DNA from: Gammaproteobacteria bacterium
GTDB taxonomy: Bacteria > Pseudomonadota > Gammaproteobacteria > JABCZS01
Reading direction: 5' to 3'
DNA: 64,000 nt
NCBI GenBank assembly: GCA_013289085.1
Contig: JABDAR010000002.1
Span: 69,943 to 133,942, forward strand
Part shown: positions 20,040 through 26,666 of the stretch, one piece after another
Numbering within the stretch: position 1 is the stretch's first letter
Layout of the letters: the number at the start of each line of letters is the position of its first letter
Position numbers and translations under genes: made by a program
Notes under the pieces: model-generated
Database searches by the model: none
Seen by the model: only the letters and a program-made list of their open reading frames with translations
Told to the model about the DNA's origin: nothing

Positions 20040-21179
20040 CTAAGATTTCGACATGGGCGGCGCAAGCCAAGTCATTGGATTTTGCACCTCGCCATTAAAG
20101 CGTATTTCGAAGTATAACCCAGGATTTGCAACTGGGCCGCTTTTTCCGACCTGAGCTATAGATTCATTGACATCTACCCAATCACCTGCATTCTTATATA
20201 AACTTTGATTATGGGCATATAAGCTCATATAACCATCGCCGTGATCTACAATAGTAATCAAACCAAAACCTCGTAACCAATCTGCATAAACCACGCGCCC
20301 TTTATATATAGAACGCACGTCCTCTCCTTCAGGCGCTGCAATTAATATACCTTGCCAAGTATTATTACCGACATTGCTTTCCCCAAAACGATGCAGCACT
20401 TTGCCTTGCACCGGCCATGAAAGTCGACCTTGATGCGTTTTAATTGGTTTATTAGCATTACCCGTAAAAGTCGAACCACTTTGTTTTTTAAGACTGGCAA
20501 GCACGGCTTCTAGCGCTTGTTTATCGGCTTCTAAACTTTCTAAAGTCTGATTTTTTTCTTTAATATCGGTAAGCAATTCCTCAACTAAAGCACTTTGGGA
20601 TCTTTTTTGTTGAGTAAGTTCAGCATAAACAGCAGCTTGCTCCATTTCTAGCACATTTAATTTTTCTTGTTGTAATAATTGCTGCGCTCGTGTTTGCGCC
20701 AAGCTGTCTGTATCAATTTGAATTTGCGTGGCAATTTGACTGCGTGCCGCATTAAAATAATCAAAATAAACCAATAAACGACCTACAGTATGTGGATCGG
20801 ATTGATTAAGTAATAATTTCAATCCATCGAATTGTCCTAATAAAAAAGCACCGCGAATTTGTTCTCGCAACGCATCTTGTTGCACCTGCAATTCTTTTAG
20901 ACGCACTTCATATTCTACAGTCAGTGCTTCTAATACTTCTTCGGTTTTTGCAAGTTGATTTTGAGTTTTTTTCAAACTTTTAGACGATGTGGAAATTTCT
21001 AAATCTAGTTTTTTTAATTCATCTTGGAGTTTTTGTTGTTGATTTTTATCGGCAACCAATTCTGTAGTTAAATTTTTAATTTTATCAACCACAGTTTGTA
21101 GTTTAGTTTGCGAATCTGCAGAAGAATCTGCAAAGACCGCGCATGAAAAAAATAATATCCCTATAAAAAATAATCTCAT
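20040..21179 (-). CDS. envC: murein hydrolase activator / M23 (LytM) peptidase with coiled-coil N-terminus
   Basis: 379 aa with a signal peptide, a long Q/E/L-rich coiled coil and a C-terminal LytM domain (HGDGYMSLYAHNQSL, GLYFEIR). It has the conserved gpmI-envC position and overlaps the gpmI stop (ATGA). Confidence 0.8.
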   Translation of the reverse strand: MRLFFIGILFFSCAVFADSSADSQTKLQTVVDKIKNLTTELVADKNQQQKLQDELKKLDLEISTSSKSLKKTQNQLAKTEEVLEALTVEYEVRLKELQVQQDALREQIRGAFLLGQFDGLKLLLNQSDPHTVGRLLVYFDYFNAARSQIATQIQIDTDSLAQTRAQQLLQQEKLNVLEMEQAAVYAELTQQKRSQSALVEELLTDIKEKNQTLESLEADKQALEAVLASLKKQSGSTFTGNANKPIKTHQGRLSWPVQGKVLHRFGESNVGNNTWQGILIAAPEGEDVRSIYKGRVVYADWLRGFGLITIVDHGDGYMSLYAHNQSLYKNAGDWVDVNESIAQVGKSGPVANPGLYFEIRFNGEVQNPMTWLAPPMSKS

Positions 21180-22696
21180 TTTAATAACACGCGTCCTGTC
21201 ATTGGCTTTGGAATCGGCAATTCCATTAAAGATAAAATCGTTGGAGCTATATCGGCTAAAATGCCTTTATCATGTAGCACCGTAACGGGATGACCCACAT
21301 AAATAAAAGGCACTAGATCTAACGTATGTGCCGTATGGGCTTGATTGGTTTTCTCATCAAACATTTGCTCAACATTCCCATGATCAGCAGTGATGATACA
21401 TTCACCCCCCACTTGCTTTAAAGCATCAGTAATACGTCCTAAACACGCATCAATAGTCTCTACCGCTTGAATAGCAGCCGATAAATCTCCAGTGTGACCC
21501 ACCATATCTGGATTTGCATAATTCACAATAATACCATCAAATTTTTGCGATATAATTGCATTCACTAAAGCATCGGTCACTTCTATCGCACTCATTTGTG
21601 GTTTTAGATCATACGTTGCGACTTTGGGTGAAGGAATTAAAATACGTTCCTCGCCAGGAAAGGGTGCCTCAGCACCGCCATTAATAAAAAAAGTGACATG
21701 CGCGTATTTTTCAGTTTCTGCCAAACGCAATTGAGTTAAGCCATTTTGGGCCCAAACTTCACCTAAGACTGGAGACAAATTAGCGGGCGCAAATGCAATC
21801 TCACTTTTAATATCACCAGCATATTGTGTCATGGTTACAAAAGAAGATAAAGGAATCATCTCGCGCGCAAATCCTTTAAAATCAGCATCAATAAACGCAT
21901 GGCTTAATTCCCTTGCTCTGTCTGCACGAAAATTAGCAAAAATAATTCCATCTTGCTTTGCAATGCCTTTATAATGTTCATCCACAATAATCGGTTTAAC
22001 AAATTCATCTGTAATTTTCTGTTGATACGCGGTTTCTAATGCATCTAATGCAGAATTGGCGCGAAGTCCTTTTGCATTTGCAATTGCTTCATAAGCGAGT
22101 TGCACCCGATCCCAACGTGAATCTCTATCCATGGCATAATAACGTCCCATAATAGTGGCAATTTCACCTACACCTAATTCTTTTAATTTTTCTTCTAAGG
22201 CGACAATAGAGCTTCGCGCACTTTTAGGCGGAACATCACGACCATCTAAAAAGGCATGTACTTTAATTGATTTAACGCCGGCATTTTTTGCGGCCTCTAA
22301 TAAAGCATATAAATGACGTTCATGGCTGTGTACACCGCCTTCTGATAATAAACCCATAAGATGAAGAGTCTTTTGCTGACTCACCAATTTTTCAAATAGC
22401 TGACTAAATGCAGGATTATGAGCAAATTCACCGTCTCTAATAGCCTTTTCAATTCGGGTAAAATCTTGATACACAATACGACCTGCACCTATATTCATAT
22501 GGCCAACTTCAGAGTTACCCATTTGTCCTGAAGGTAAACCTACATCTTCATTGCTTGCAGATAATAATAAATGTGGATATGTTTGCCAAAGGCGATCCCA
22601 AACGGGCGTTTTGGCACAGGTAATAGCATTGTCTTTCGCGGCCTCACGATGTCCCCAGCCATCCAAAATCAATAATAAAAAAGGCTTTGCGCGCAT
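21176..22696 (-). CDS. gpmI: 2,3-bisphosphoglycerate-independent phosphoglycerate mutase
   Basis: LLLILDGWGH N-terminus and typical iPGM motifs. The ORF is open to 22708, but the ATG at 22696 follows GAGGA by 5 nt. Confidence 0.9.
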   Translation of the reverse strand: MRAKPFLLLILDGWGHREAAKDNAITCAKTPVWDRLWQTYPHLLLSASNEDVGLPSGQMGNSEVGHMNIGAGRIVYQDFTRIEKAIRDGEFAHNPAFSQLFEKLVSQQKTLHLMGLLSEGGVHSHERHLYALLEAAKNAGVKSIKVHAFLDGRDVPPKSARSSIVALEEKLKELGVGEIATIMGRYYAMDRDSRWDRVQLAYEAIANAKGLRANSALDALETAYQQKITDEFVKPIIVDEHYKGIAKQDGIIFANFRADRARELSHAFIDADFKGFAREMIPLSSFVTMTQYAGDIKSEIAFAPANLSPVLGEVWAQNGLTQLRLAETEKYAHVTFFINGGAEAPFPGEERILIPSPKVATYDLKPQMSAIEVTDALVNAIISQKFDGIIVNYANPDMVGHTGDLSAAIQAVETIDACLGRITDALKQVGGECIITADHGNVEQMFDEKTNQAHTAHTLDLVPFIYVGHPVTVLHDKGILADIAPTILSLMELPIPKPMTGRVLLK

Positions 22697-22732
22697 GAAA
22701 ATCCTCATATCTTTTAAAAATAAATGAATTCA

Positions 22733-22847
22733 CCCCCTTTATGAAAGGGGGTCGGCCGTAGGCCGGGGGGATTTTGCAAGCTTTAACGTATATGCAAAAA
22801 TCGCAAAATCCCCCCGCCTTGCAGGCGGCCCCCTTTCATAAAGGGGG
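22733..22847. repeat. 115-bp GC-rich nested inverted-repeat element (MITE/REP-like)
   Basis: Two 45-bp arms (22733..22777 and 22803..22847) lie in inverted orientation around a 25-bp AT-rich spacer. Each arm holds a local hairpin CCCCCTTT-ATG-AAAGGGGG, a second 5-bp hairpin (CGGCC-GTA-GGCCG versus CGCCT-TGC-AGGCG) and GGGGGATTTTGC. Confidence 0.8.
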
Positions 22848-22921
22848 CGATATATTATGTGTTGCCAGTATAAAGTATGATATCATTTTCCTCTACTGAT
22901 ATCGCAAAGAGACCAAAACCC

Positions 22922-23338
22922 ATGCAATTACTTGAATTTATGACCAACCACTGGCCGCTTGTTGCCGCCTTTGTCATTTTACTATTATTACTCATCTTTT
23001 CAGAAATGCGTGCCCGCATGAGTGGCGCCCAAAAAGCAACGCCTCATCAAGCCACATTATTAATTAATAAAGAAGATGCGCAGGTGTTTGATTTGCGTGA
23101 TGAATTAGCTTACAAAAAAGGCCATATCATTAGCGCAAAACACATGCTTCCCGCACAAGTCCGTGCGGATACAAAATTATCTATGGATAAACCCATATTA
23201 CTGGTTTGCCAATCGGGTTATCAATCACCCGCATTAGGCAGAGAATTACGCAAAAAAGGCTTTAAACACGTCTATTATCTCGCAGGCGGTATTGATAATT
23301 GGCTAGGTAGCGGTTTATTACTGACAAAAGGCAAATAA
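22922..23338 (+). CDS. yibN: membrane-anchored rhodanese-domain protein (YibN-like)
   Basis: N-terminal TM helix plus a rhodanese fold with Cys loop (LVCQSGYQS). It has the conserved yibN-grxC-secB-gpsA order. The start at MQLLEFMTNHWPL (22922) is preferred over the ORF-track 22877 by comparison with the E. coli YibN N-terminus as I recall it. Confidence 0.7.
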   Translation: MQLLEFMTNHWPLVAAFVILLLLLIFSEMRARMSGAQKATPHQATLLINKEDAQVFDLRDELAYKKGHIISAKHMLPAQVRADTKLSMDKPILLVCQSGYQSPALGRELRKKGFKHVYYLAGGIDNWLGSGLLLTKGK

Positions 23339-26238: not shown

Positions 26239-26641
26239 CAGCAGCAGCATTGGATAGATTGAGACTACGGGAATGTGGCAGCATGGGAATTCTAATTTTT
26301 TTATTTTCAGCAAATGTATTTAAGATTTCTGATGGTAGACCTCTTGTTTCTGGGCCGAATAAAAATGCATCATCTTGTAGATATTGATGATCAGTATAAT
26401 TTGTTTTGGCTTTAGTCGTCACTGCATAAACATTTTTATTTTCAAAAAATAATAAATCATCATGTTGGGTTACGCTGGCCCATTCTTGGTAATCTAGGCC
26501 TGCGCGGCGTAGTTGTTTATCTTCTAAAGTAAAACCTAAGGGTTTAATGAGATGTAAATGACAGCCGGTATTGGCGCATAAACGGATGATATTGCCGGTA
26601 TTTGGGGGGATTTCGGGTTGGTACAGAATTATATGGAACAT
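26198..26641 (-). CDS. trmL: tRNA (cytidine/uridine-34-2'-O)-methyltransferase, SpoU family
   Basis: 147 aa. YQPEIPPNTGNIIRLC and the C-terminal SLNLSNAAAVILYE knot motif are typical of TrmL. Confidence 0.85.
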   Translation of the reverse strand: MFHIILYQPEIPPNTGNIIRLCANTGCHLHLIKPLGFTLEDKQLRRAGLDYQEWASVTQHDDLLFFENKNVYAVTTKAKTNYTDHQYLQDDAFLFGPETRGLPSEILNTFAENKKIRIPMLPHSRSLNLSNAAAVILYEAWRQQKFG

Positions 26642-26642
26642 T

Positions 26643-26657
26643 CAAAATCCCCCCGCC
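26643..26657. repeat. 15-nt fragment identical to part of the 22733..22847 element
   Basis: CAAAATCCCCCCGCC at 26643..26657 is identical to 22804..22818. It lies in the 25-nt glnA-trmL spacer and supplies the G-rich Shine-Dalgarno of trmL. Confidence 0.6.
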
Positions 26658-26666
26658 GGCGTATTT

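Follow-up and report, generated by a model that had tools for sequence, protein, structure and literature searches.

The divergent genes gpmI and yibN are separated, in the 64,000-nt stretch of DNA that was analysed here (the window), by a spacer that holds a GC-rich palindromic element (Table 1). The window belongs to G000, the 1.33-Mb assembly of an uncultured Legionellales MAG (37 contigs, 38% GC, 73% complete). Two inverted arms of 45 nt each (22733-22777 and 22803-22847) agree at 39 of 45 positions after reverse complementing, and GC content is 64% in the arms, 28% in the spacer between them and about 40% in the flanks. Both arms share the outer 19 nt (CCCCCTTTATGAAAGGGGG), which pair with themselves over a stem of 8 bp (9 bp if a flanking A-T or G-C pair is counted), as well as the inner GGGGGATTTTGC. 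The middle 13 to 14 nt are unlike between arms (CGGCC-GTA-GGCCG versus CGCCT-GCA-AGGCG) and form a 5-bp hairpin in each. The coordinates, identities and GC contrast that the first-pass annotation gave for the arms, spacer and hairpins were all reproduced.

On the gpmI side, the element lies upstream of the start codon by 36 nt if this is the ATG at 22696, whose ribosome-binding site (RBS) is GAGGA, or by 24 nt if it is the alternative ATG at 22708. On the other side, ATG 22922 rather than 22877 is the likely start of yibN, since homologues align only from residue 15-16, and the stretch between the two would be a conserved leader. The control block and leader at 22856-22921 contain two GATATC palindromes 19 nt apart (ATGATATCAT ... 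CTGATATCG), which are retained in the congeners G001 and G005 and, across the part compared, in G003; the pair could be an operator.

Table 1. Coordinates, in the window, of the gpmI-yibN region, the element between the two genes, and a second sequence of the same family.
Feature	Position	Strand	Description
gpmI	21176..22696	-	2,3-bisphosphoglycerate-independent phosphoglycerate mutase; start 36 nt from element
AT-rich stretch	22711..22732	.	CTTTTAAAAATAAATGAATTCA; missing from empty sites too; part of inserted segment or diverged flank
Whole element	22733..22847	.	115 bp, gpmI/yibN intergenic; tail-to-tail doublet of two triplex-motif units plus spacer
Left unit, hairpin A	22732..22752	+	Pyrimidine arm CCCCCTTT 22733-22740, loop ATG, purine arm AAAGGGGG 22744-22751, closing pair A22732-T22752
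Left unit, hairpin B (linker)	22753..22765	+	CGGCC-GTA-GGCCG
Left unit, module C	22766..22777	+	GGGGGATT 22766-22773, candidate reverse-Hoogsteen third strand, antiparallel to AAAGGGGG; then tail TTGC
Spacer	22778..22802	+	AAGCTTTAACGTATATGCAAAAATC; AT-rich, asymmetric, 25 nt; occupies the place of the DUF559 gene in full cassettes
Right unit	22803..22848	-	Module C 22807-22814, hairpin B (CGCCT-GCA-AGGCG) 22815-22827, hairpin A 22828-22848
Conserved control block and yibN leader	22856..22921	+	GTGTTGCCAGTATAAAGTATGATATCATTTTCCTCTACTGATATC...; common to G001, G003 and G005, where it directly abuts the gpmI RBS
yibN	22922..23338	+	Rhodanese-like; likely true start
Relic of the same family	26602..26660	.	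GGGGGGATTT, 28-nt spacer, AAAATCCCCCC; doublet inner core without hairpins A and B

Both strands of the element fold with a stability far beyond that of shuffled sequences, whether treated as RNA (-82.7 and -84.6 kcal/mol; z = -10.7 and -11.2) or as DNA (-45 and -47.5 kcal/mol; z = -8.9 and -10.4). An Rfam scan of the region at permissive thresholds gave no family at gathering score, the output being sub-threshold microRNA-hairpin noise of at most 26 bits against cut-offs of 60 to 107.

The modules of the element recur throughout the genome. G000 contains 36 A hairpins, and 27 of these are parts of full A-B-C units, at 26 loci; the core CCCCCTTT-ATG-AAAGGGGG has 28 perfect copies genome-wide. 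In unit orientation, module A reads (G/A/C)CCCCCTTT-ATG-AAAGGGGG(C/T/G), module B is a GC hairpin of the form CCG-NNN-loop-NNN-CGG with about 17 inner stems across the 27 units and pairing retained in all, and module C is GGGGGATTTT. The arrangements comprise 8 singletons, 5 complete tail-to-tail doublets plus 1 truncated, 4 head-to-head pairs and several A-only hairpins. All tail-to-tail doublets, including the truncated one, have a homologous asymmetric spacer (GCAAGCTTTAA...AAAGATCGC), which makes the doublet itself a copied unit. Nearly all copies are intergenic, most of them 4 to 30 nt past a stop codon, and the gpmI-site copy is the only full doublet in G000 between divergent genes.

Variation among the copies follows the pairing. 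When the 27 units are aligned on the two-hairpin structure, 96% of cells pair, and two-sided changes occupy 33 cells compared with 8.3 +/- 2.2 in shuffles (0/500), while all slid controls collapse. These changes sit in the three inner pairs of hairpin B (CG/GC/UA), with modules A and C nearly invariant; the closing pair of hairpin A also covaries among copies (G-C in 19, A-T in 4, C-G in 2). The compensatory changes first noticed between the two arms at gpmI therefore hold across the family. The first-pass annotation had offered selection for structure and a family of related modules as alternatives; the covariation and the 27 full units show that both are right. Template-switch "quasipalindrome correction" without selection could also produce such compensatory changes. 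In all 5 complete tail-to-tail doublets of G000, the B hairpins are unlike between arms. Perfect long palindromes are probably unstable or selected against, and unlike linkers may persist for that reason.

Several individual copies deserve separate mention. The relic in the window overlaps the predicted start of a 147-aa minus-strand ORF and is probably a decayed copy. Elsewhere in G000, a head-to-head doublet (C4:89722-89815) lies in frame inside a 737-aa rlmKL-like ORF, where it adds about 31 residues (KSPRRSGGPLSEGGEIPPFMKGGLPEGQGGIF) to the stretch that joins the two methyltransferase halves, and a single unit (C5:31845-31886) is read in frame as QNPPALRATPFLKGV within a ctaA-like (heme A synthase) ORF. 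At C4:65458-65627, an 84-nt spacer lies between two outward-facing units whose B hairpins are identical; the spacer contains the direct repeat GGTGAACTTC.C.C.TATTTATCGATAAA twice, and the build is unlike that of the other doublets. Contig C11 starts exactly at an A hairpin (C11:2-20), which suggests that the assembly breaks at repeats, so that repeat-flanked cassettes could be missing from the bin.

Comparison with relatives shows the element at gpmI to be an insertion. The divergent gpmI/yibN pair is kept throughout the bacterial family in the relatives compared, and in the congeners G001, G003 and G005 the spacer between the two genes is only 30 to 84 nt long and lacks the element, with synteny and control block retained. 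A conserved block (GTGTTGCCAGTATAAAGTATGATATCATTTTCCTCTAC...) abuts the gpmI RBS in these three genomes, and precisely at this junction G000 has an additional segment of about 140 nt (22711-22851). Together with the 27 units in the genome, the three empty sites uphold the earlier proposal of a MITE/REP-type insertion. No target-site duplication was seen, either flanking the family copies or against the empty sites of G001, G003 and G005, and the flanks of the repeats are TCG...CGA-type inverted extensions rather than direct repeats. G002 has its own doublet subtype at the same gpmI-yibN position. In G004, the spacer (L096) is 283 nt long and contains an unrelated palindrome, CCAATAAAGAATTTGGGGGGATATTTTATGC...GCATAAAATATCCCCCCAAATCCTTTATTGG. 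Three lineages (G000, G002 and G004) thus have different palindromic inserts between gpmI and yibN, and the spacer is either an insertion hotspot or the site of one old insertion that has been reshaped.

The empty sites also bear on how the element is transcribed. Neither a sigma-70 promoter scan nor inspection of the spacer by eye found a convincing promoter for gpmI or yibN. As only about 10 to 25 nt separate the conserved block from the gpmI start codon in the empty sites, there is no room for a promoter between them, and the ancestral gpmI promoter would have been in or beyond the conserved block. The G000 element would then be transcribed with gpmI and, judging from sequence, it almost certainly lies inside the gpmI 5' leader. 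We infer that it is a passenger there, and that any effect on gpmI or yibN expression is a by-product.

Beyond its two hairpins, each unit contains a mirror repeat. GGGGGATT of module C mirrors the purine arm AAAGGGGG of hairpin A, and an antiparallel reading gives G.G-C five times, then A.A-T, T.A-T and T.A-T (8/8 triads). A scan for perfect 8-triad class II motifs found 23 in G000, all of this family. Where the stem varies, the tail varies with it (C6T3/G6ATT, C4T4/G4ATTT, C5T2/G5TT, and G5TTT in G008). Folded as single-stranded DNA with Watson-Crick pairs, a unit stacks hairpin A on hairpin B and leaves the tail unpaired at the foot of A, the point from which the third strand of a triplex has to begin. 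This layout fits the grammar of a class II purine-motif intrastrand triplex, which is the candidate fold here. Class II TM sequences, as described by Hoyne & Maher and Holder et al. 2015 (PMC4666352), consist of a pyrimidine arm, a loop, a purine arm, a second loop and a G/T-rich mirror segment. On the basis of this shared arrangement of motifs, we regard the element as a member of the BoxC/PIT/TM kind, though not as TMECO itself, and its hairpin linker as a new variant of these known repeats. Published triplex searches limited the second loop to 0-10 nt (Hoyne 2000) or 1-6 nt (ITxF), and because the hairpin linker measures 13-17 nt, they would miss families of this build.

Relatives help to place the hairpin linker. 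In a cross-genome count of A hairpins, the genus ranged from 260 in G002 through 31 in G000, 23 in G004 and 2 in G005 to 0 in both G001 and G003; in other genera there were 41 in G009, 16 in G008, 15 in G026 and 11 in G012. The second loop is plain in some of these genomes (TTA in G012, GTT in G026, TA or CA in G002), and such units with an ordinary short second loop indicate that hairpin B stands in for a loop. G002 has more than 100 units, which occur in doublets at the sampled loci, and most sampled doublets pair one short-linker arm with one hairpin-linker arm. All 5 doublets of E. coli K-12 combine one TTA arm with one CCG arm.

Some 30 years after BoxC/PIT/TM repeats became known (the BoxC/PIT repeats reportedly from the work of Bachellier in the 1990s and of Hoyne & Maher in 2000), we know of neither a function nor a mobilising enzyme for them. 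Triplex folding in vitro has, to our knowledge, been demonstrated for the E. coli TM sequence only and never with a 13-17-nt hairpin as second loop. According to Holder et al. 2015 (PMC4666352), no transposase, integrase or mobility genes have ever been found near these repeats.

Across relatives, units of this kind bracket genes for DUF559 proteins (PF04480), which have a Vsr-like fold and whose nearest solved structure, 3hrl, is an "endonuclease-like protein." The DUF559 genes of G004, G008 and G009 (two copies) are bracketed by the repeat type of the gpmI element, with tails toward the gene; the polarity of these cassettes is that of the gpmI-site doublet, and the gene replaces the 25-nt spacer. 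The DUF559 genes of G000, G002 and G010 are bracketed by other triplex-motif types, CCCTCTCCC or CCTTCTCCC, the G002 type with a hairpin linker. We extended the comparison to 300 genomes of the class, 71 of which have DUF559, and obtained 32 loci with full flanks from 29 genomes. A unit lay within 150 nt upstream at 21 of these loci, downstream at 23 and on both sides at 16, its tail always toward the gene. The 80 control loci (531 kb) gave 0.011 hits per kb, so that units are enriched about 600-fold, with fixed polarity, at both ends of DUF559 genes. DUF559 genes were the only genes found between such repeat ends. Near DUF559 genes, strongly asymmetric purine tracts of at least 7 sequence types obey the mirror rule, and none of them the parallel rule. 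The same mirror-versus-parallel control, run over all purine tracts near these genes with one mismatch allowed, did not discriminate overall, because most tracts are nearly mirror-symmetric and only strongly asymmetric ones are informative; the mirror relation also counts as a single evolutionary observation per family.

Repeat type and nuclease phylogeny go together. A3G5-type repeats go with four DUF559 proteins that group in a single clade (SH-aLRT 98; 0/500 shuffles as low). The G002 protein is joined (SH-aLRT 97) by a protein of a different bacterial family, and the repeats at that protein's gene are of the G002 type, again with a hairpin linker. Over the whole DUF559 tree, repeat type changes 14 times versus 18.1, with 0/200 shuffles as low. 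We consider the association of DUF559 with the repeats well supported; that DUF559 mobilises them is our interpretation of it, since the nuclease could also be a passenger or could prefer repeats as landing sites. A literature search found no paper linking DUF559 to these repeats.

The pairing of repeat and nuclease is incomplete in several genomes. A tblastn search of the 73%-complete G000 assembly for a remnant of the cognate (clade-1) DUF559 gene found none, the only hit being the BoxC-linked gene on contig C3. In G002, with 260 copies, only a DUF559 of the other clade was found and not one of the matching clade; G012 and G026 have units and no strong DUF559 match, and G010 has DUF559 and lacks the repeat type of the gpmI element. 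Short genes flanked by high-copy repeats readily drop out of metagenome bins, so a missing cognate gene is weak evidence; yet the repeat family may have been orphaned in G000.

Two DUF559 loci have further peculiarities. In E. coli K-12 (L180 5205-5420), where a TM unit lies downstream of the DUF559 gene ycjD, a partial second copy of the gene's 3' end (GGAGACGGTGCTGGAGAATATTC...) appears some 60 nt further on, ahead of the TMECO unit; a rearranged DUF559 cassette may have left this trace. In the G009:C1 cassette (L119 1330-1400 and 1915-1985), the flanks beyond the triplex units form an inverted repeat of about 65 nt, which would fit a cassette inserted at the middle of a second palindrome, or else cassette ends that extend far beyond the unit.

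Other accounts of the element have to be weighed against this background. A dedicated cis-regulator (an RNA leader structure, attenuator or operator for the gpmI operon, for yibN-grxC-secB-gpsA or for both), the RNA-level form of which is one option in the first-pass annotation, would suit a highly stable fold on both strands, located between the control block and the gpmI RBS, a position that makes its transcription within the gpmI leader almost certain. On each strand, a T-rich stretch also comes after the outer hairpin, which is flagged as terminator-like (5 T in 8). We nevertheless regard it as very improbable: three congeners keep the synteny and the control block without the element, the same modules lie at about 26 loci beside unrelated genes and in either orientation, and no Rfam family matches. 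The conserved third-strand segment, moreover, makes sense in DNA only, as purine-motif triplexes do not form in RNA (PMC4666352). A function at the RNA level could instead belong to the family as a whole, with hairpins at 3' ends serving in transcript stabilisation or termination, a role suggested for E. coli REP, and with the gpmI copy as a misplaced member that acts as an insulator. The many copies 4-30 nt past a stop codon, between tandem or convergent genes, point that way, as do a few A-only hairpins with T runs such as G000:C5:74952, but post-stop placement may only mark sites where insertions are tolerated. Either end of the unit faces the upstream stop with no orientation bias, most units lack a T run, and two copies lie in frame inside genes. 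For PIT elements, PMC4666352 cites a lack of promoter and terminator activity in E. coli and, from Hoyne and Maher, the lack of an in vivo phenotype. An RNA-level role of this sort seems improbable to us, less so than the regulator.

The choice among mobile-element readings turns on the enzyme. A classical REPIN or BIME, that is, a REP doublet mobilised by a RAYT (an IS200/IS605-type Y1 transposase), would likewise have the doublet as replicated unit, mosaics of singletons with head-to-head and tail-to-tail pairs, and no target-site duplication, and Y1 transposases do occur in the bacterial family. Y1_Tnp (PF01797) has no match in the 73%-complete G000 assembly, however, and across 14 relatives the presence of Y1 does not track the repeats: a strong Y1 gene accompanies 0 copies in G001 and G007, whereas G002 has 260 copies and only a 24.8-bit match. 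On these grounds we rejected a RAYT as mobiliser, and as the bracketed genes encode DUF559 rather than a RAYT, we give the classical REPIN/BIME almost no credence. A G-quadruplex formed by the G runs was also considered; it leaves the mirroring of the purine arm by the tail unexplained. A more serious competitor holds that neither the triplex grammar nor the DUF559 link is functional, and that the element is nothing more than a selfish hairpin repeat whose tail is G-rich and whose spread depends on some unknown enzyme or on recombination, with DUF559 genes as targets or passenger neighbours. Families orphaned of a cognate nuclease in G000, G002, G012 and G026 would be expected from this, and the mirror control is silent for near-symmetric purine tracts. 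It remains unlikely in our judgment, given the mirror rule in asymmetric tracts, the enrichment of units with fixed polarity at both ends of DUF559 genes, and the clustering of repeat type on the nuclease tree.

The explanation that we prefer, and hold with fair confidence, is that the element belongs to a dispersed repeat family of the BoxC/PIT/TM kind and represents a tail-to-tail doublet that lacks a gene, inserted in the gpmI-yibN spacer in the G000 lineage. As a single strand, each 45-nt arm would double back on itself two times, giving a class II purine-motif triple helix of five G.G-C, one A.A-T and two T.A-T triads. Linker hairpin B would do nothing more than return the chain to the foot of hairpin A, which would leave its sequence free to vary as long as it pairs and could account for the compensatory changes. 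Doublets would be non-autonomous derivatives, spread or maintained in trans by the cognate DUF559 nuclease, which would recognise the folded single strand. Their relation to DUF559 would then be analogous to that of REPINs to RAYTs, with the element at gpmI as a gene-less, REPIN-like member. A broader generalisation is tempting, and we offer it tentatively, as something less likely than not. It supposes that fold rather than sequence is conserved, the third strand being delivered by any stable turn; that the folded strand is the site of a clade-matched DUF559 protein; that BoxC/PIT/TM repeats and their doublets are the non-autonomous partners of these proteins, in parallel with REPIN-RAYT; and that A3G5-type and GAGAG-type systems coexist in one Legionellales family.

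Because the second loop can be a freely varying hairpin, "fold" becomes separable from "sequence" in these repeats. Clean filled and empty sites are available among congeners, and one bacterial family contains two DUF559 clades, each between its own repeat type. Taken together, these three facts make a direct biochemical test easy to design. For annotation, the element should not be read as a regulator of gpmI or yibN, while its insertion places a very stable predicted hairpin in the leader of a central glycolytic gene.

Each of the better-known families of small repeats resembles the element in part. Like MITEs such as Correia/NEMIS and ERIC, it is in the range of about 100-150 bp, has long terminal inverted repeats, lies near promoters or gene ends and has empty sites in relatives; unlike them, it shows no target-site duplication, and its arms also occur as free-standing single units. 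With Rickettsia palindromic elements (RPE) the family shares copies in frame inside genes, two in this case (the rlmKL inter-domain linker and ctaA), but it is unrelated to them in sequence and build, and its copies are mostly intergenic. The likeness to REPIN/REP-RAYT systems of Pseudomonas and E. coli, and to BIMEs, goes further: short palindromic units occur singly or as inverted doublets, the doublet replicates, a single-copy enzyme gene is bracketed by repeats (here in relatives), enzyme clade and repeat type go together, and the target is not duplicated. The bracketed enzyme differs, being a PD-(D/E)XK Vsr-fold DUF559 protein rather than a Y1 (HUH) transposase, G000 lacks a RAYT, and the unit has a mirror-repeat tail that REP lacks. 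The closest kin are the BoxC/PIT/TM repeats. In place of the TMECO consensus (CCCTCNCCC N3-6 GGGNGAGGG N3 GGGNGAGGG), the unit here has C5T3 / A3G5 / G5ATT, and where those repeats have a second loop of 3 nt, this one has a hypervariable GC hairpin of 13-17 nt in what is a candidate triplex only. In other respects the two agree: a homopyrimidine-homopurine stem of at least 8 across a short loop is followed by an antiparallel mirror segment; G/C-rich units lie in a lower-GC genome, mostly between genes and free of strand bias; singletons occur alongside inverted doublets whose arms differ in the second loop; copy number varies wildly among close relatives, with transposases absent nearby; and a DUF559 gene, which in E. 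coli is ycjD, adjoins a copy.
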